IMG/VR virus record: IMGVR_UViG_2563367173_000013 | DNA: 20,000 nt | DNA from: an uncultured virus (IMG/VR IMGVR_UViG_2563367173_000013) | Taxonomy: Duplodnaviria > Heunggongvirae > Uroviricota > Caudoviricetes | Strand: one strand, 5' to 3' | Shown: piece after piece, positions 368 to 14,805 of the stretch | Layout: the number at the start of each line of letters is the position of its first letter | Position numbering within the stretch: the stretch's first letter is position 1 | Notes under the pieces: generated by a model | Told to the model about the DNA's origin: nothing | The model's database searches: none | The model's input: the letters and a program-made list of their open reading frames with translations, nothing else | Made by a program: the position numbers and the translations under genes

Positions 368-1900
368 TTATATATTCAAAAGCGTCCCCGCATATTTCAG
401 CACATTCACTTTCTCCACCGCTTCTCTATTTCCCACAATATTAGCCCCCAACGCACCTGCAATATTCCCCATAAAAGTTCCCAACTCTACAGATGCACCA
501 GCCGCTGCATACAACCCGGCAAGAGAATAAAACGCATCCCCAGCCCCTATCGTATCCTTCACCGATAACGTAAATGCCGGACAATCATATATTTTCTGAT
601 CCTCTATTCCATAAGCACCAAATGACCCTCGTGTAAGCCAGCCATTTCCTCCCAAATATTCACTAAGTTTTTTCAATGCATAATTTTCATTTGCTATATA
701 CATTGGAAACGCAAGCTTTAATTCCTTCTGATCCAACGTAAATACATCAGCTCTATGATACTTTGTAATAACATTCAGTCCATAATTTGTCGAATTTGTC
801 TGACAGTTCAAAACCAGATATTTCGCTCTCTGCTGTATAATTTCTCCCGCTTTTTCATCTATCAGACCATGACCAAAATCACATAAAAACACAACGTCAA
901 ACTCTTCAATTCTATCCAAAAGTCCTCTATAAAATTCTTCTCTGGCCTCTTCTTCATATTCCATTCGTTCCGGAATATTATTAATCGAAAATATTTTTCT
1001 GTATTCTTCTCTTTTTTCATTTCTTGTAAGATAACGGTGTTTTACAATTGTAGGAAATTTATTACTATACGTTAACTTCAAACGCATCTTATCCGCAAGG
1101 CCATCAAAAAGTTTTAATCGCATTTCTTCTTCATTTCCTACAATCGACATTAAAGTCACATTCTCTGTAAAACTGCTAAGATGTCTTGCTACAGCTGCAG
1201 CACCACCAAGATACTCTTCGGAATATTCCAGTTTCGACGAATATCCCATATCCTTGCTCATCAGTCCATGTACAATGCAGTAAGTATATTTATCTATAAT
1301 TATATCTCCTACAACAAGTACCTTGAGCTTTTCGGCTTTTTCTGCATATTTTTTAATGTCTTCCATGGAATATTTTTTTACAAATTGCTCCATATATTGT
1401 ATAACATCTTCCGGAAGTCCGGATAATGCTGTGTTGATCAATTTCGTCGAGCTGAATACCTGTCCTGATGTATATGCTACCTTTCCCCCATGTAACTCAA
1501 CTAACTCTCTTTCAGCAGTAATCTTCCCTGTAATATCTTCACTCTCTTTTGCGTATTCTTCCCCTTTAATATAAAGATCCGGCTCTACGTTTTCTACAAT
1601 ATCATCTACCGTATAACCTTCTGAAAGCATTACATAATCTACATACTCTAATGCTTCCAATACTTTCAGGCGCATCTCGTCATTAAAATATGGTCTCCCA
1701 GGGCCTTTCCGCACAAATTCAGCTGCCGTGATGGACACAACCAAAATGTCCGCCATCTGTTTCGCCTGCTGCAGATGTATAATATGTCCCGGATGTACCA
1801 GATCAAATACACCGTGACAAAGAGCTATCTGCTTGCCTTCTTTTTTTAATTTTGGCCTTATTTGTGTTTTGAACACAAGCTTGTCCACTATTTTTCCCAT
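368..1900 (-). CDS. Bifunctional nucleotidyltransferase (N-term) / PfkB sugar kinase (C-term), HldE/RfaE-like with reversed domain order
   Basis: N-term HGVFDLVHPGH, KGPGRP, KGEEY, FSST; C-term GDIIIDKY, GGAAAVA, TRG, DTIGAGDAF; co-operonic with gmhA/gmhB-like genes. Confidence 0.85.
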   Translation of the reverse strand: MGKIVDKLVFKTQIRPKLKKEGKQIALCHGVFDLVHPGHIIHLQQAKQMADILVVSITAAEFVRKGPGRPYFNDEMRLKVLEALEYVDYVMLSEGYTVDDIVENVEPDLYIKGEEYAKESEDITGKITAERELVELHGGKVAYTSGQVFSSTKLINTALSGLPEDVIQYMEQFVKKYSMEDIKKYAEKAEKLKVLVVGDIIIDKYTYCIVHGLMSKDMGYSSKLEYSEEYLGGAAAVARHLSSFTENVTLMSIVGNEEEMRLKLFDGLADKMRLKLTYSNKFPTIVKHRYLTRNEKREEYRKIFSINNIPERMEYEEEAREEFYRGLLDRIEEFDVVFLCDFGHGLIDEKAGEIIQQRAKYLVLNCQTNSTNYGLNVITKYHRADVFTLDQKELKLAFPMYIANENYALKKLSEYLGGNGWLTRGSFGAYGIEDQKIYDCPAFTLSVKDTIGAGDAFYSLAGLYAAAGASVELGTFMGNIAGALGANIVGNREAVEKVNVLKYAGTLLNI

Positions 1901-1915
1901 TTGCAGTCTATCCTT

Positions 1916-2902
1916 TTATTTTCCAAGATATTTAAACCAATCTTCTGTCGCTTCTCCTATGCTGTCTGGTGTCCATACAGGCGCTTCACGCCAATAATCA
2001 ATATTGTCCAGCACCTTCTTTACGCCTTCCTCGAATGTAACTTTTGCTTTCCATCCCAATATTTGCTCAATCTTGGCAGTGTCCGCAAAGGTGCAATCCG
2101 GTTCTCCCGGCCGCTTTGGAATATGTACAATTTCTCCCTCTAACAACTCACACAAACGATTGACGGAATAAGTTCCTCCACTGCCTACATTGAAAGTTTC
2201 CTGTACTACATCCGACATTGCTGCCGTATAAAATGCATCTGCAATATCAGTCACATATGTGAAATCTCTGGTCTGATTCCCATCTCCCACAACAGTAAAT
2301 GGATTTTCTGCCAACTTTTGTGCCAAAAATACGCCAAACACCGCACCGTATGTTCCTGATGTCCTTGATCTCGTGCCATATACATTAAACAATCTAAGTG
2401 TAATCACCGGCAGGTGATACACCTGTCCCCAATGCAAGACTGTTTCTTCTCCCAGTCTTTTCGTAAGTGCATAAGGATATTGTGGTCTGATTTCTGCTGT
2501 TTCTTTTGTCGGATATTCATCAGGAATCCCATAACAGGAAGAGGATGCTGCATAAACGAGTTTTTTGATTCCCTTGTTTTTAGCACATTCAACTACATTG
2601 AAAGTACCTAGCACATTTGATGAATAATAATCCCATGGTCTCTGAATAGAAGGAACAATATCTGCCAATGCTGCAAAATGAAATACATAATCCACATCAT
2701 TGAAAATCGGTTCTATTTCCTCTTTATTTCGAATATCCATATGATATACCGATAACATCTTATTATTTTTCTGATGATCCAGATTTTCAGGCCGTCCTGT
2801 CGTCCAGTTATCAATTACCCTGACCTCGTGTCCTTCTGCCAGTAATCTATCCACCATATGTGAACCAATAAAACCGCATCCACCTGTTACTAATGATATC
2901 AT
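1916..2902 (-). CDS. NAD-dependent nucleotide-sugar epimerase/dehydratase (extended SDR)
   Basis: TGGCGFIGSH, ASSSCYG, YALTK, RLFNVYG, GDGNQTRDF; GGAGG (2913-2909) favours the ATG at 2902. Confidence 0.9.
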   Translation of the reverse strand: MISLVTGGCGFIGSHMVDRLLAEGHEVRVIDNWTTGRPENLDHQKNNKMLSVYHMDIRNKEEIEPIFNDVDYVFHFAALADIVPSIQRPWDYYSSNVLGTFNVVECAKNKGIKKLVYAASSSCYGIPDEYPTKETAEIRPQYPYALTKRLGEETVLHWGQVYHLPVITLRLFNVYGTRSRTSGTYGAVFGVFLAQKLAENPFTVVGDGNQTRDFTYVTDIADAFYTAAMSDVVQETFNVGSGGTYSVNRLCELLEGEIVHIPKRPGEPDCTFADTAKIEQILGWKAKVTFEEGVKKVLDNIDYWREAPVWTPDSIGEATEDWFKYLGK

Positions 2903-2914
2903 AAGCATCCTCCA

Positions 2915-3448
2915 TCACAATATTTTTATAACATCCGTTAAATCTTCAAAGATGAAATCCGGCTTTACATTCTTCTCCAGCCGCGCTGTTCCATAGCCGG
3001 ATTCCAGCAAAATCGTCCGTATACCTATATTTTGCCCGGCAATGATATCTCCTGCCCTGTCTCCCACCATGTAAGAATGTTCCATATCTATCACAAAATC
3101 CCTACAGGCCATATCAAACATTCCCTTTTGAGGCTTACGACAATTGCAGCCTGCATCCGGATGATGTGGGCAGTAGTACACAGCATCTACCCCGGTTTGC
3201 AATATCAGGTACCGATTCATTTCCTGTAATACTTTTTCTGTAAGTAATCCCCTTGCAATACCACTTTGGTTTGTAATAACAATGGCATAATATCCCTTAT
3301 TATGTATTCTTTTTATACAATCTGCTGCATATGGGAAGATTTTAAAATCTTCCATTACAGTAATATAACTCTTTTCTTCGGTTAAAACTCCATCACGATC
3401 CAAAAATACGGCAGGTTTTAAAAAAACAGACGATTCTTCCATACACAT
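2915..3448 (-). CDS. gmhB: D,D-heptose-1,7-bisphosphate phosphatase-like HAD enzyme
   Basis: FLDRDGVL, ITNQSGIARG, CPHHP...CNCRKP Zn motif, MVGDR. Confidence 0.85.
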   Translation of the reverse strand: MCMEESSVFLKPAVFLDRDGVLTEEKSYITVMEDFKIFPYAADCIKRIHNKGYYAIVITNQSGIARGLLTEKVLQEMNRYLILQTGVDAVYYCPHHPDAGCNCRKPQKGMFDMACRDFVIDMEHSYMVGDRAGDIIAGQNIGIRTILLESGYGTARLEKNVKPDFIFEDLTDVIKIL

Positions 3449-3449
3449 A

Positions 3450-4028
3450 TCAGAATTTTACTCCATCTCTCTCCATAATCATGTCTACAATCTGCTGAAG
3501 TATTAAGTTATGAATGGATTCAACAATTCCATATTTTTTACAGGGAACATATACATTTATATTACCCAATTGTTTTAACTGATTATCTTCTTCAAAACCG
3601 GTAAATGTAATTATTTCTGCTTTCTTTAATTTTGCTGTTTCTACTGCATTGATAATATTTTTTGAATTACCTGAACTGCTAATGGCTACTATTAAATCAT
3701 CTTCTCTAATTAAAAATTGTAACGGTCTTGAAAAGATATATTCATAACCATAGTCATTACCCATACAGGTTGTTACTGCCTGATCATATAGACTATATGT
3801 ATTCATTCCGCCATTTTTCATAAAATCAGCTGTCATATGACTGGCTATCGCAGAACTTCCTCCGTTTCCAATAAAAAACAACTGCGATTGATTTTTTTTA
3901 TGCTTTGTAAACGCATCCAGTAACATCTGAACTGCTTCATTATAATTATCACATAGTTTCCCAGTTCCATTCCAAAATTCAGTTGCTTCCAATTTTCCAA
4001 TTAATTCATTAATATAGCAATTATCCAT
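3450..4028 (-). CDS. gmhA: SIS-domain phosphosugar isomerase, divergent GmhA-like
   Basis: GNGGSSAIASH, GNDYGYEYIFSR, ISSSGNSKNI, TGF motifs; first gene of the operon. Confidence 0.75.
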   Translation of the reverse strand: MDNCYINELIGKLEATEFWNGTGKLCDNYNEAVQMLLDAFTKHKKNQSQLFFIGNGGSSAIASHMTADFMKNGGMNTYSLYDQAVTTCMGNDYGYEYIFSRPLQFLIREDDLIVAISSSGNSKNIINAVETAKLKKAEIITFTGFEEDNQLKQLGNINVYVPCKKYGIVESIHNLILQQIVDMIMERDGVKF

Positions 4029-4114
4029 CTATCATTCTCTCTGTCTTCTTAAATATAAAGCAAGATTATTTAATTAATACATTGATCTTTCAAAAATAGC
4101 AATATTTACCACAT

Positions 4115-4149
4115 ATAAAAAAGTCCATGAATATACTTCATGAACTTTT
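4115..4149 (-). terminator. Intrinsic terminator upstream of the gmhA-like gene
   Basis: Minus strand AAAAGTTCATGAA-GTATA-TTCATGGACTTTT (one G-U pair) ending in a T run. Confidence 0.7.
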
Positions 4150-4228
4150 ATGCCTATTATAACTTCAATTCCTTATATATGCATCCTGCATATCAGCATT
4201 CATCCATGAATATCAGAATTTTTATATT
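4115..4228 (-). ncRNA. Putative sigma28-dependent small RNA or leader RNA with GGA-loop hairpins (CsrA-binding type)
   Basis: Lies between the sigma28 promoter and the terminator; hairpins ATTCA-TGGA-TGAAT (4211-4198) and ATATGC-AGGAT-GCATAT (4193-4177), a further AAGGAA near 4170, and no ORF of meaningful length. Confidence 0.5.
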
Positions 4229-4233
4229 ATAAC

Positions 4234-4261
4234 ATATCGGCAATAACCCTGTAAATCTTTA
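4234..4261 (-). promoter_or_regulatory. sigma28 (FliA/SigD) promoter
   Basis: TAAA (4261-4258)-N16-GCCGATAT (4241-4234) in an intergenic region; matches the B. subtilis sigmaD consensus. Confidence 0.8.
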
Positions 4262-4304
4262 GATAACAATTTCTGTTTCCTTTATTTTACATGAAACTAC
4301 TGAT

Positions 4305-6041
4305 TTATATCTTTCTGTCAAAATTTTCTTTTCCAATCAATACCCTATTCCCACAAAAAGCAAACCCATACTTTCGTATACGCCCTCTCTCAATTCCTTT
4401 CCGAATCAAAATCTCCTCATACCGCTTCTTCTCTATCTGCATTAACGCAGCGTTCACCGTATCCTCCAGCGCTTTTTCCCCATGCTCTTGATCCTGCACC
4501 TTAAATTCCAAAATAAACGCATTATCATTTTGTTTCTTTGGCTCAAACATTACGTCATACCTTCCAAATCCACTTTCTCTGTTAGAAGTTATCACATATC
4601 TGTCATTCAGCTCAATCATCAGTCCCAGAACAAAACCATGATAAAAACATTCCGGCTCACTAACCGACGGCTTCTTTCCCGTATCAAAACAACTGAATGT
4701 TCCAAGCGCTACTTTATTCATATATATGTTCATTGCGCTTACATCGTTTTTAAGAAATGCCTTAATAAAATCATTATAATCTGATATTTGTCCGACAAAC
4801 CACCCATGTATCATTCTGCCAAACATCAATTTTACTTCCAGATTGGTAATCGCCAGTTCATATTTAAGTACATGTGTAGTAAATCCGACAGGATTTTGTT
4901 CTTCCACATTCAAAACTTTCAGATATCCACTTGCCAGCAAAAGTCCCCAGATCGCAGACTCGTCGTCGTTAAGCATGTTATACGCAACCTGTTCATCAAT
5001 AAATGTTTCAAAATGTCCACCTGAAAGAAGCTGTTCAAATGACTGCTTAAGATCTCGCGACCCCTTTTGAATTAATTTTCCAATGAAATCATTGGAACTT
5101 GTATTTGCCCAATAAGTACGCAATTTTCCTGTATCCAGATAATTGATGACAGACCATGGATTATAAATATCCGTTTTATTTCCAAATGTATAACCGTCAT
5201 ACCATAGTTTTACTTTTGATTGTTCATCAGACATTCCAAATTGCTTCAATGCAGCAAAAACTTCTTCTTCTGTAAATCCAAAACTATCAGCATATTCATC
5301 AGACGTCGTTGTAATCACTTTCAGATTGTTGAGATCCGAAAAAACAGATTCTTTACTTACTCGCGTTATCCCGGTCATAACCGACCGATCCATATACGGA
5401 TTTGTCTTAAATGTGGAATGAAACAAACTTCTGATAAATTTCGACAATTGATCCCAATATCCATGAACATATGCTTCCTGCATTGGAGTATCATATTCAT
5501 CCAGTAAAATAATTACTTTCTTTTTGTAGTAACGAGAAAGAAAGTCTGACATCTTGTGAATTGCCCATACTGCTGTTGTTTCTTTCATCTCACTGTTTAC
5601 ACTGCGAAAGTACATCTTTTCATTTTCCGTTAACAGATCCCCTTCAAGCAAAAAAATATTTTTATTATATAAATCCTCTATAATCCAATTCACAGACTGC
5701 CTGATCTTTTCATAATCTGTTTCCTTCACATTTGCAAACGACAGACTTATTACCGGATAAGATCCCTGTAGTGTACGATAATTTTCATCTTTCCATATGG
5801 AAAATTTTTGAAACAGTTCGCTTCGCCCGGCATACTTTAATGAAAAAAATTTTTCCAGCATACTCATATTCAAAGTTTTTCCAAATCTTCGTGGACGGGT
5901 AATTAATGTAACAATATCTTTACTCTCCCACCATTCTTTAATAAACATTGTCTTATCAATATAAAAATTGTCATCCAAAACCAACTGCTCAAAATCCTGA
6001 TGACCAATCCCTACCACTTTTTTTACCGTACACTCACCCAC
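4305..6041 (-). CDS. AAA-ATPase-like protein with C-terminal PD-(D/E)XK nuclease domain (DUF1703/PDDEXK_9 type)
   Basis: RPRRFGKT Walker A, IILLDEYDTP Walker B, YNPWS, SNRESGFGRYD...ILEFK, ALMQIEKKRY; GGAGGTG (6053-6047) favours the GTG at 6041. Confidence 0.9.
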   Translation of the reverse strand: MGECTVKKVVGIGHQDFEQLVLDDNFYIDKTMFIKEWWESKDIVTLITRPRRFGKTLNMSMLEKFFSLKYAGRSELFQKFSIWKDENYRTLQGSYPVISLSFANVKETDYEKIRQSVNWIIEDLYNKNIFLLEGDLLTENEKMYFRSVNSEMKETTAVWAIHKMSDFLSRYYKKKVIILLDEYDTPMQEAYVHGYWDQLSKFIRSLFHSTFKTNPYMDRSVMTGITRVSKESVFSDLNNLKVITTTSDEYADSFGFTEEEVFAALKQFGMSDEQSKVKLWYDGYTFGNKTDIYNPWSVINYLDTGKLRTYWANTSSNDFIGKLIQKGSRDLKQSFEQLLSGGHFETFIDEQVAYNMLNDDESAIWGLLLASGYLKVLNVEEQNPVGFTTHVLKYELAITNLEVKLMFGRMIHGWFVGQISDYNDFIKAFLKNDVSAMNIYMNKVALGTFSCFDTGKKPSVSEPECFYHGFVLGLMIELNDRYVITSNRESGFGRYDVMFEPKKQNDNAFILEFKVQDQEHGEKALEDTVNAALMQIEKKRYEEILIRKGIERGRIRKYGFAFCGNRVLIGKENFDRKI

Positions 6042-13707: not shown

Positions 13708-14805
13708 ATGAATAACAGCAAATCATTAAACTCACATACCACCTCATCGGAGCCTTCCGATAAGGTTAACAAAAAGAAAAAAGCAGCTGGCATAGAAATT
13801 TTGGCAAATAAAGATGATATAGAGCCTACTTTGATAAAAAAGGCTAATATTCGGTATCAGGACAGTTTTTTCAGAAGATTATTTAAAGAACCAAAATATA
13901 GGAAGGCATTATATTTGATTTTGCATCAGGAAGACATAAATGTTGAAGATACGGAATTTGAAAATATAGAACTTGATAATATTCTGAATGTTGATATTTA
14001 CAATGATATTTGCTTTACGGTCCGAAACCGATTGATTATATTACTCGAACATCAATCAACATTGAATCAAAATATGCCTATTCGGATACTTTTATATCTT
14101 GCAGAAGAATATAAACGTCTTCTTACGCGAAGTGAATTTTCTTCTGCTCTTTATGCGGCACCGCTTGTGAAAATACCAAGACCGGAGTTTTATATCGTAT
14201 ATACCGGTACGGAACCATGTGCTTCCGTTATGAAATTATCCGATGCTTTTTTAGATTGCACTTCTTCCGGCATCAATGCCGAAAGTAAAATTGAACTGAC
14301 CATCCCGGTATTGACTGCGACCGATTCAAAAGGCATTCTTGCCGAATATTTTGATATTATAAACTATATAAAATCAGAAACCAGGTACTGCGGCTCTCTT
14401 GAGACAGCCATAAGCCATGCTATTTTGAAATATCAGTCCGGATACGAAATATCAGAATTTATCAGAAATCAGAAAGGGGTGTATGATACATTGTTTGAGC
14501 AAATCAGTAGAGAAGAATTATTAGCGAGACAGCTTGAAGCCAATGCAAGAGTCCTGACCCAACAGGTGACTGAACAGGTGACCCAGCAGGTAACCCAGCA
14601 GGTAACCCAGCAGGTGACTGAACAAGTGACCCAGCAGGTAACCCAGCAGGTAACCCAGCAGGTAACCCAGCAGGTGAAAAAAAATGATATTTTAATATCT
14701 TATAAAATGTTACTTGAAGCTGGCATTGCACCGGAAAATGCCCTGCAATCTATAGTACGGAATTATAACTTGGAAGAAACGGAAGTACGGAAAATTTTAG
14801 AATAA
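13708..14805 (+). CDS. Rpn/YhgA-like PD-(D/E)XK nuclease (putative transposase family) with C-terminal 4-aa repeat
   Basis: YQDSFFRRLF, YNDICF, LLEHQSTLNQNMPIRILLY, KIPRPEFYIVYTG, MKLSDAF. Confidence 0.8.
   Translation: MNNSKSLNSHTTSSEPSDKVNKKKKAAGIEILANKDDIEPTLIKKANIRYQDSFFRRLFKEPKYRKALYLILHQEDINVEDTEFENIELDNILNVDIYNDICFTVRNRLIILLEHQSTLNQNMPIRILLYLAEEYKRLLTRSEFSSALYAAPLVKIPRPEFYIVYTGTEPCASVMKLSDAFLDCTSSGINAESKIELTIPVLTATDSKGILAEYFDIINYIKSETRYCGSLETAISHAILKYQSGYEISEFIRNQKGVYDTLFEQISREELLARQLEANARVLTQQVTEQVTQQVTQQVTQQVTEQVTQQVTQQVTQQVTQQVKKNDILISYKMLLEAGIAPENALQSIVRNYNLEETEVRKILE
14557..14676 (+). repeat. 10 x 12-bp coding tandem repeat (consensus ACCCAGCAGGTA/G; T[Q/E]QV)
   Basis: Ten adjacent units read directly; units 2 and 6 are the ACTGAA (TEQV) variants. 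Confidence 0.95.

Follow-up and report, generated by a model that had tools for sequence, protein, structure and literature searches.

A Conserved Promoter, Hairpin and Terminator Cassette Upstream of Nucleotide-Sugar Operons: A Candidate CsrA-Responsive Leader of the Flagellar Class

The Element and Its Anatomy

The stretch of DNA considered here (hereafter, the window) comprises the 20,000 nucleotides (nt) of IMG/VR record IMGVR_UViG_2563367173_000013, filed as an uncultured virus of the Caudoviricetes, and it carries on its minus strand an operon of predicted nucleotide-sugar enzymes. Directly upstream of this operon lies the subject of the present work, a short non-coding element (minus strand, 4261..4117) in which a promoter motif of the flagellar sigma28/SigD class is followed by two hairpins with GGA loops of the CsrA type and by a predicted intrinsic terminator. 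An earlier note had read the element as a small RNA (sRNA) that is transcribed by sigma28 and titrates CsrA or, failing that, as the leftover leader of a deleted flagellin gene. As judged from its sequence, the element is a real, conserved and narrowly distributed regulatory cassette, and the reading ranked first below is that of a cis-acting leader that could place the adjacent operon under the control of CsrA.

The element forms the core of a conserved cassette of about 180 nt (4292..4117), and every motif listed in the earlier note was found on the minus strand within 4261..4117 by direct reading of the sequence. Upstream of the −35 region, the cassette begins with an A/T-rich block (minus strand, 4262..4292) that is conserved in the homologs; BLAST homology with a second species of the same genus (genome G021) starts at about 4292, and the block may represent an UP element or the site of a regulator. 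The sigma28/SigD-type promoter motif (4234..4261) is composed of TAAA (4261..4258), a spacer of N16 and GCCGATAT (4241..4234). It is overlapped by a promoter motif of the housekeeping type (4226..4255), with TTTACA at 4255..4250, a spacer of N18 and TGtTATAAT, to which the promoter scan assigned 11 of 12 matches together with the TG.

Downstream of these boxes, hairpin 1 (4198..4211), AUUCA-UGGA-UGAAU, and hairpin 2 (4177..4193), AUAUGC-AGGAU-GCAUAU, would each expose a GGA in a CsrA-type loop, and the two GGAs lie 19 nt apart. The 5′ half of hairpin 1 is UUCAUGGAU, and hairpin 2 contains CAGGAUG. A third GGA follows in AAGGAA (4169..4174), which resembles a Shine-Dalgarno sequence and has no start codon behind it. 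The predicted intrinsic terminator (4117..4149) consists of a hairpin of 13 pairs with a loop of 5 (4149..4119) and a run of six U residues that ends at 4117. An 11-nt direct repeat, ATATTCATGGA, is present both in hairpin 1 (4213..4203) and in the 3′ arm of the terminator (4134..4124). An RNA that begins at either predicted start and ends in the U-tract would measure about 103-109 nt, and the four GGAs of this ~105-nt RNA are distributed over the two hairpin loops, AAGGAA and the terminator stem. Two terminator-like sites were found in 3400-4900, against 0.2 expected from shuffled sequences. Between the terminator and the first gene extends a poorly conserved spacer (4029..4116), which includes a weak promoter-like site, TTGAAA-17-AATAAT, at 4093..4065.

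The description of the element as free of any open reading frame (ORF) proved correct in the sense that no conserved ORF overlaps the motifs. Only two frames of at least 20 amino acids (aa) overlap the interval 4100-4270, one antisense (30 aa) and one that stops upstream of the −35 box (25 aa), and neither is gene-like. The 30-aa frame (plus strand, 4140-4232), which runs across both hairpins, is kept in the homologous metagenome contig L071 and has different ends in G021; it was rejected as a gene and most likely reflects only the conservation of the underlying RNA sequence. A leader peptide starting at the ATG in the 5′ arm of the terminator was also rejected, the frames in question (10-14 codons) not being the same between homologs.

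Conservation and Distribution

The genome of the window, that of a gut Firmicute, was represented by its nearest genome, G001, which shares 100% of the sampled words of the window. The cassette was found in three places only, namely G001 (i.e., the window itself), G021 and L071. Over a 175-nt alignment that starts about 30 nt ahead of the −35 box and runs to the end of the terminator, the G021 copy is 80% identical to the window, and the flanks on both sides do not align. The L071 copy is identical to the window at 137 of 145 positions of the element (94%), at 58 of 88 positions of the spacer to the next gene (66%) and at 77% of the third codon positions of the gmhA-like gene that follows. The −35 and −10 boxes of the sigma28 motif are identical in all three homologs, and seven positions of the spacer between them differ in G021. 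In turn, the 50 nt that contain both hairpins, with 2-3 changes relative to G021, are the best-conserved part of the element. Fixed boxes, a variable spacer and a conserved 50-nt stretch are what a promoter with a constrained RNA behind it would be expected to show.

Regarding the individual parts of this putative RNA, hairpin 2 is invariant in G021 except for its outermost pair, and AAGGAA is not kept in that species, where it reads AA-GAA. The GGA sites retained in G021 are those of the two hairpins, plus a CAUGGA in the terminator. When the three homologs are aligned, 97% of the cells of the terminator are paired, with three one-sided changes; the terminator scan detects the equivalent in G021, and L071 contains the same sequence.

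Several searches were directed at further copies. BLAST over 61 relatives returned one real match, in G021, and matches of 19-52 nt in 10 other genomes with E values of 2.4e-4 or worse. Covariance model R1 matched G001 and two weak candidates (E 0.01 and 0.04), both lacking the hairpins and the −10 box, and no second copy of the element was found in the genome. The exact two-site pattern occurs in one stretch of the genome contigs, which belongs to G021, and in 15 stretches of the metagenome contigs, of which only L071 is homologous. A loose pattern, CCGATAW..GGATG..GGATG, is matched by 235 of 401 genomes, mostly inside genes, and is uninformative; of five such matches that were inspected, only those in G261 and G258 resemble sigma28 leaders, and neither precedes a sugar operon.

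Comparison with Rfam (cmscan over 3300-5000 of the window, E up to 10) gave seven weak matches, none of them within 4113-4265 and none to a Csr or Rsm family. By this comparison the element does not belong to a CsrB/Rsm-type sponge family, and none of the riboswitch or leader families of Rfam matches it either. Applied to the 15 two-site loci of the metagenome contigs, Rfam produced no match at the gathering score and nothing relevant at E up to 1 in seven of them, so that the Rsm-like look of several of these loci was not supported. Three unrelated metagenome contigs (L065, L068 and L069) share a conserved non-coding stretch with the two-site motif (UCAUGGAUGA, 10 nt, GCAGGAUGC), and the matches L066/L067, L073 and L079 also look non-coding and are without an Rfam match.

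The Downstream Operon and the Surrounding Island

The first gene of the operon (minus strand, 3450..4028) encodes a GmhA-like sedoheptulose-7-phosphate isomerase with a SIS domain (Pfam SIS_2/SIS; its best NCBIfam matches are gmhA models, below their cut-offs). It is followed on the same strand by genes for a GmhB-like phosphatase (3448..2915), an NAD-dependent epimerase/dehydratase (2908..1916) and an HldE-like protein with cytidylyl/adenylyltransferase and PfkB kinase domains (1900..368), all three assigned with Pfam and NCBIfam. The matches to equivalog models are below cut-offs throughout the operon, and the four genes together constitute a predicted nucleotide-heptose pathway. After window position 3419, within the GmhB-like gene, a contig assembled from RNA libraries has an extra A.

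In all three homologs the element is co-oriented with a nucleotide-sugar operon and located 53-88 nt upstream of it. In the window, a gap of 88 nt separates it from the heptose operon, and the upstream neighbour is an AAA-ATPase/PDDEXK_9 gene. In L071, a gap of 76 nt leads to the same gmhA-like gene, at the head of a GmhA/GmhB/epimerase/HldE-like operon, and the upstream neighbour is a helix-turn-helix gene. In G021, the gap is 53 nt and the operon is of another type, a UDP-amino/uronic-sugar set that comprises a TviB-like UDP-sugar dehydrogenase, a TviC-like epimerase, a DegT-type aminotransferase, a radical SAM protein, a methyltransferase and others. Upstream of the G021 element lies a divergent DDE transposase gene; no co-directional upstream gene is available to feed the operon, and the promoter of the cassette is the only strong promoter-like site. 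The GmhA-like orthologs of 10 other genera (301 genomes searched) are located in the middle of operons, without such a leader.

On a larger scale, the gene order of G001 is flgK-flgL-fliW-csrA-flaG-fliD-fliS-x-flagellin, followed by a run of glycosyltransferase and sugar-modification genes about 58 kb long, of which the window is part and which lies almost entirely on the minus strand. The late (F1) and glycan (F2) regions of Clostridioides difficile are ordered as in G001 (PMC10889297). On the contig of the element, a flagellin-like gene is located 72 kb away in G001 and 50 kb away in G021, distances that are consistent with the same neighbourhood in both species.

This island is a recombining region with insertion sequence (IS) elements. 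In G021, contig C1 starts with an IS-end sequence that is also found beside the transposase upstream of the element on contig C7, and because this sequence is shared, the two contigs may join via an IS copy. A perfect palindromic bidirectional terminator (L059:203-235, on C1 of G021; L061:9091-9109) stands alone near the start of C1 and has the same GTTCATGAA core as the terminator of the element. Elsewhere in the window, the plus strand at 13708-14805 encodes a 365-aa ORF without a Pfam family, in which a run of QQVT/EQVT repeats, about 11 in tandem, lies near the C-terminal third.

Resemblance to Flagellin Leaders

The comparison with flagellin leaders covered the 13 flagellin upstream regions of G001 and G021. 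Four of them place CAUGGA or CAGGAU in a hairpin that precedes the start of the flagellin match by 40-48 nt, and these four are exactly the regions that display a TCCGATAT −10 box at −135 to −155; the flagellin genes of the window's genome have the form TAAA/TAAG-N15-TCCGATAT. One flagellin leader of G001 (L004) contains AUUCA-GGA-UGAAU, and its counterpart in G021 (L097) contains AUAUUCA-GGA-UGAAUAU. Hairpin 1 of the element, AUAUUCA-UGGA-UGAAU, is one loop base away from this hairpin, and hairpin 2 has the CAGGAUG loop of L004 and L097 on a different stem. The CAGGAUG/CAUGGAUG loop motif is common to both hairpins of the element and to the hairpins that precede flagellin start codons in both species.

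The 68 kb around the flagellin gene contain four exact TAA[AG]-N14-17-CCGATA[TA] motifs, three of which are intergenic and on the gene strand. Each of these three is followed by a hairpin with a UGGA(U/A)G loop, and they stand before the flagellin gene, before a 120-aa ORF and in the element itself.

The element shares with flagellin leaders a promoter of the SigD/sigma28 type, recognised by its motif and conserved in the three homologs, and a GGA hairpin of the flagellin type. It has no second site over the Shine-Dalgarno sequence of a flagellin ORF; the sites are followed by no ORF, and the next gene, behind the terminator, is the GmhA-like one. Lacking both an ORF after its sites and a site over a ribosome-binding site (RBS), the element is not a flagellin leader proper. 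The possibility that it is a copy of an extant flagellin leader was rejected, as none of the 13 flagellin upstream regions scored above the shuffle maximum. Descent from a flagellin leader, or mimicry of one, is likely.

Three related leaders deserve description in their own right. In the main flagellin leaders of the two species (L001 in G001 and L093 in G021), about 40 nt before the match, AUACAUC-AUGGAA-GAUGUAU becomes AUGCAUC-AUGGAA-GAUGCAU, and this compensatory change from A-U to G-C supports the predicted hairpin in real flagellin leaders. At the 120-aa ORF of the island, which belongs to no Pfam or NCBIfam family, the minus strand (L086:16275-16363; G001:C1 ~4635163-4635251) carries TAAG-N16-GCCGATAT and then a CGGUC-UGGAU-GACCG hairpin that abuts the RBS, an arrangement that looks like a classical CsrA-type translational operator. 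Finally, on the minus strand of contig C16 of G261 (L142, at ~2837 in the reversed locus), TAAA-N16-GCCGATAA and three GGAUG within 65 nt are found upstream of a 139-aa ORF, in what is by its motifs a sigma28-type leader rich in CsrA-like sites from a different genus.

Promoter Class and Partner Genes

In Butyrivibrio fibrisolvens, the flagellar promoter motif is TAAA N16-17 MCGATAa, the housekeeping motif is TTtACA N19 cATAAT, and one fliC gene has two promoters (PMC3720852). The sigma28 motif of the element fits the flagellin promoters of the window's genome as well as the flagellar motif of B. fibrisolvens, and TTTACA-N18-TATAAT fits the housekeeping motif of the latter. Both overlapping promoter motifs are conserved in all three homologs, and a dual promoter is the simplest reading. 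The promoter motif behind the earlier note's sigma28 assignment is real and conserved, and sigma28 is a candidate for the factor in use.

The partner genes that a flagellar CsrA circuit would involve were found. In G001, csrA and fliW lie side by side (CsrA 84.4 bits, FliW 125.9 bits), and FliW is also present in G021. A gene of the FliA/WhiG family exists as well; its copy in G021 is intact (266 bits), and the copy in G001 is split over two frames. This split is likely an assembly error, because other splits and at least one indel relative to the RNA-library contig occur in the same assembly. Among them, fliD of G001 is divided into N- and C-terminal ORFs (L087:8225-10539). The alternative to indel errors in the G001 assembly is that the genes concerned are really broken. 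As for transcripts, the small RNA-library runs contain pieces at 2900-3180, 3251-3689, 4251-4574 and 4963-5300 and none over the element, from which neither the presence nor the absence of a short RNA follows.

An Alternative Pairing at the Terminator

When the nascent RNA is folded up to the terminator loop, the best structure in all three homologs joins the 5′ arm of the terminator to UUCAUGGAU, the GGA-containing 5′ half of hairpin 1. The computed energy of this antiterminator fold is −15.6 kcal/mol in the window, −11.9 in G021 and −15.7 in L071, and enforcing both hairpins instead gives −9.5, −6.7 and −11.4 kcal/mol, respectively. The antiterminator duplex itself amounts to −8.5 kcal/mol in each of the three, and the terminator hairpin to −13.4 (window), −14.0 (G021) and −11.6 kcal/mol (L071). 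Taken alone, hairpin 1 reaches −1.8 kcal/mol in the window and −0.2 in G021, and hairpin 2 reaches −5.8 and −4.2 kcal/mol. The fraction of shuffled upstream sequences that match the duplex is 0.022 for the window, 0.092 for G021 and 0.015 for L071.

From the computed folds it follows that a protein holding both GGA hairpins would favour termination, and that its removal would favour read-through. As in an attenuator, a predicted intrinsic terminator separates the promoter from the first gene. Statistically the switch is modestly supported, and we infer the direction in which it would act.

A Model of CsrA-Responsive Attenuation

We assign an even chance to the interpretation that the element is a CsrA-responsive, flagellar-class leader or attenuator of the glycan operon, whose terminated product may also hold CsrA. 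This model proceeds from the motifs and their joint conservation, from the genomic context, from the resemblance to the hairpins of flagellin leaders and from the presence of csrA, fliW and fliA, and it postulates a transcript with its ends, a choice of sigma factor, binding of CsrA, a direction of control and read-through. Transcription would start at the sigma28 promoter, which overlaps one of the housekeeping type, and would generate a leader of ~105 nt in which the two flagellin-type GGA-loop hairpins, 19 nt apart, would serve as CsrA-type sites. The leader would end at the intrinsic terminator, 88 nt before the first gene. Free CsrA bound to both hairpins would keep UUCAUGGAU off the 5′ arm of the terminator, in which case the terminator would form and the short RNA would be released. 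Once FliW holds CsrA, during flagellin export, the antiterminator pairing would prevail and the polymerase would read into the sugar genes.

The partner-switch logic of B. subtilis (PMC13443453) would by analogy mean that the sugar operon is read through when FliW has captured CsrA. The supply of sugar for flagellin glycosylation would then follow the Hag/FliC-FliW-CsrA checkpoint, and the terminated RNA may act as a CsrA decoy in competition with flagellin mRNAs. In this manner, the element probably couples the provision of sugar for flagellin to the flagellin checkpoint. The cis attenuator, with or without a decoy function in trans, is ranked first because the cassette is fixed before two unrelated sugar operons, for which there is no other conserved promoter.

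A number of observations count against this model. To begin with the motifs, TAAA-N14-17-GCCGATA occurs 26 times in G001, against 24 times for the reversed control, and pairs of GGA-loop hairpins, by loose criteria (stems of at least 5, 10-30 nt apart), are found 17 times in 136 kb of strand. The listed motifs alone are weak evidence, and the element is more than chance because it is conserved as a unit, not because of its motifs alone. The fold of 4100-4235 has a z of −3.3, in a stretch that includes promoter DNA. The housekeeping-type promoter is equally conserved, so that transcription may not depend on sigma28, and the FliA/WhiG-family gene of G001 (G001:C1:1870226-1870884) consists of two overlapping frames of 133 and 121 bits. 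Weak promoter-like sites also exist between the terminator and the gene, with 10 of 12 matches in the window and 9 of 12 in G021. Moreover, the four RNA-library runs are represented by contigs, one of which (10,293 nt) spans the whole stretch, and as assembled sequences these cannot show starts, ends or levels.

The structural part of the model is affected too. Hairpin 1, which lacks its closing pair in G021, is very weak, RNAalifold favours another fold for the 5′ half of the element, and no double changes were detected among the three homologs, neither in the 24 pairs of the model of hairpin 1, hairpin 2 and terminator nor in the 32 pairs of RNAalifold. Covariation being absent, the secondary structure rests on the sequences themselves. 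The antiterminator pairing only marginally beats shuffled sequences and is partly a consequence of the palindromic UUCAUGAA core, and the terminator fold prevails in the full-length RNA. In addition, only three homologs exist, two of them close; within the genus the element was found in 2 of 22 genomes and not in the other 20, and in the other genera sampled in the family it was not found with covariance model R1 over 151 genomes. Lastly, that the ~58-kb island glycosylates flagellin is something we infer from its position alone.

Competing Explanations

The proposal of the earlier note, a free-standing, trans-acting sRNA of ~105 nt that sequesters CsrA and raises flagellin translation, its place before sugar operons being incidental, is in our opinion doubtful. 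Its starting material stood up, in that the promoter and hairpin motifs are real and the hairpins are of the flagellin-leader kind; it is the context that points to a cis-acting leader instead. All three copies are co-oriented with and 53-88 nt upstream of a sugar operon, these operons are of two unrelated types, and that of G021 has no other strong promoter. A compact sRNA gene would account well for the conservation of promoter, RNA and terminator as a unit while both flanks change, for the poorly conserved spacer behind the terminator, and for a terminator that is predicted to be strong (13 pairs plus U6, −11.6 to −14.0 kcal/mol). Csr-type titration is similarly suggested by four GGAs within ~105 nt, of which two occupy hairpin loops like those of flagellin leaders, and by the presence of csrA and fliW. 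However, only two sites are conserved, AAGGAA being lost in G021, and there is neither an Rfam match nor a second copy in the genome.

It also seems improbable that the element is a promoter and leader of the operon unrelated to CsrA, whether with a leaky terminator, with a stabilising 5′ structure or as an attenuator for another protein or a metabolite of the sugar pathway. Such a leader would occupy the same cis position as the CsrA-responsive one, and it would make use of the near-consensus housekeeping-type promoter, which is as conserved as the sigma28 motif. Under loose criteria GGA-loop hairpins often occur in pairs, covariation is absent, and the CsrA sites are predicted ones. This explanation is at odds with the CAGGAUG/CAUGGAUG loops, which recur before flagellin start codons in both species, and with the finding that the 50 nt with the two hairpins are the best-conserved part. 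The element would further be too small and simple for a typical ligand aptamer, and it matches no riboswitch or leader family of Rfam. The GGAUG core, moreover, is as in BS1, TGACAAGGATGT, a predicted CsrA site of C. difficile fliC (PMC8523840).

The suggestion that the element is a non-functional, drifting scar of a deleted flagellin gene, with promoter, leader and terminator left behind, is very improbable: the layout is indeed that of a flagellin leader without its ORF, with the GGA of AAGGAA 14 nt after that of hairpin 2 and then the terminator, in a recombining island with IS elements, but the element is better conserved than its flanks and so does not behave as a decaying relic (its identity with L071 is 94%, compared with 77% at the third codon positions of the next gene and 66% in the neighbouring spacer), is kept in a second species before a different operon, shows no similarity beyond shuffles to the 13 flagellin upstream regions, and is followed by an 88-nt spacer that cannot fit a flagellin coding remnant.

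Relation to Known Systems and Significance

CAGGAUG is the repeat of CsrB. Like CsrB and CsrC of E. coli and RsmX, RsmY and RsmZ of Pseudomonas, the element would be a small untranslated RNA that has a promoter and terminator of its own and presents GGA in hairpin loops, as far as its sequence indicates. The Csr and Rsm sponges carry many more sites and are under the control of GacA/UvrY; unlike them, the element has no Rfam match, two conserved sites, a flagellar-type promoter and a fixed place before an operon, in a host whose CsrA is of the FliW type. A further precedent is the flaA mRNA leader of Campylobacter jejuni, a CsrA target that also titrates CsrA in a system containing FliW. The role proposed here for the terminated leader, that of target and competitor of a FliW-controlled CsrA, would be similar, with the difference that in C. 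jejuni the RNA is the flagellin mRNA itself, whereas here it would be a flagellin-less leader before glycosylation genes, in another phylum.

TRAP at the trp leader of B. subtilis and CsrA with Rho at E. coli pgaA are protein-mediated transcription attenuators, and CsrA itself alters termination at pgaA. The element resembles them in its succession of promoter, putative protein sites overlapping one strand of a predicted antiterminator, terminator and operon, although its switch is a computed one. It can be envisioned, as a tentative and rather unlikely extension, that CsrA of a FliW-type system acts like TRAP at an intrinsic terminator, with the checkpoint setting the read-through, and that the ~105-nt leader is the first CsrA RNA decoy of a Firmicute.

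The hag and fliC leaders can also be compared with the element. The B. subtilis hag leader has two GGA stem-loops (PMC13443453), and in C. difficile fliC, besides BS1, a second CsrA site, BS2 CTAAGGAGGG, has been predicted (PMC8523840). In Firmicutes, CsrA is described as acting on a single target, the translation of flagellin, with the protein FliW as its antagonist (PMC13443453, PMC8523840). The element shares with these leaders a SigD/sigma28-type promoter motif and GGA in the hairpin loops of an untranslated leader, and its genome shares with these systems the location of csrA beside fliW in the late flagellar cluster (PMC10889297). Unlike them, it has no flagellin ORF or start codon after the sites and no hairpin over an RBS, and it possesses an intrinsic terminator that is followed by genes for sugar-nucleotide enzymes.

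Among the titles and abstract openings of the literature searched, none concerned an intrinsic terminator under CsrA control or an RNA that antagonises CsrA in a Firmicute. The same titles and abstract openings held no CsrA-linked leader of a flagellin glycosylation operon, the nearest case being the indirect one of H. pylori jhp0106 under CsrA/RpoN.

The element would offer a small, mutable and concrete test object in motile gut Lachnospiraceae, bacteria whose flagellins matter for host immune recognition (PMC3720852). If the model is true, a mimic of a flagellin leader would extend the FliW-CsrA checkpoint to the sugar supply for flagellin decoration, and would add termination as a level of control and possibly an RNA competitor for CsrA.

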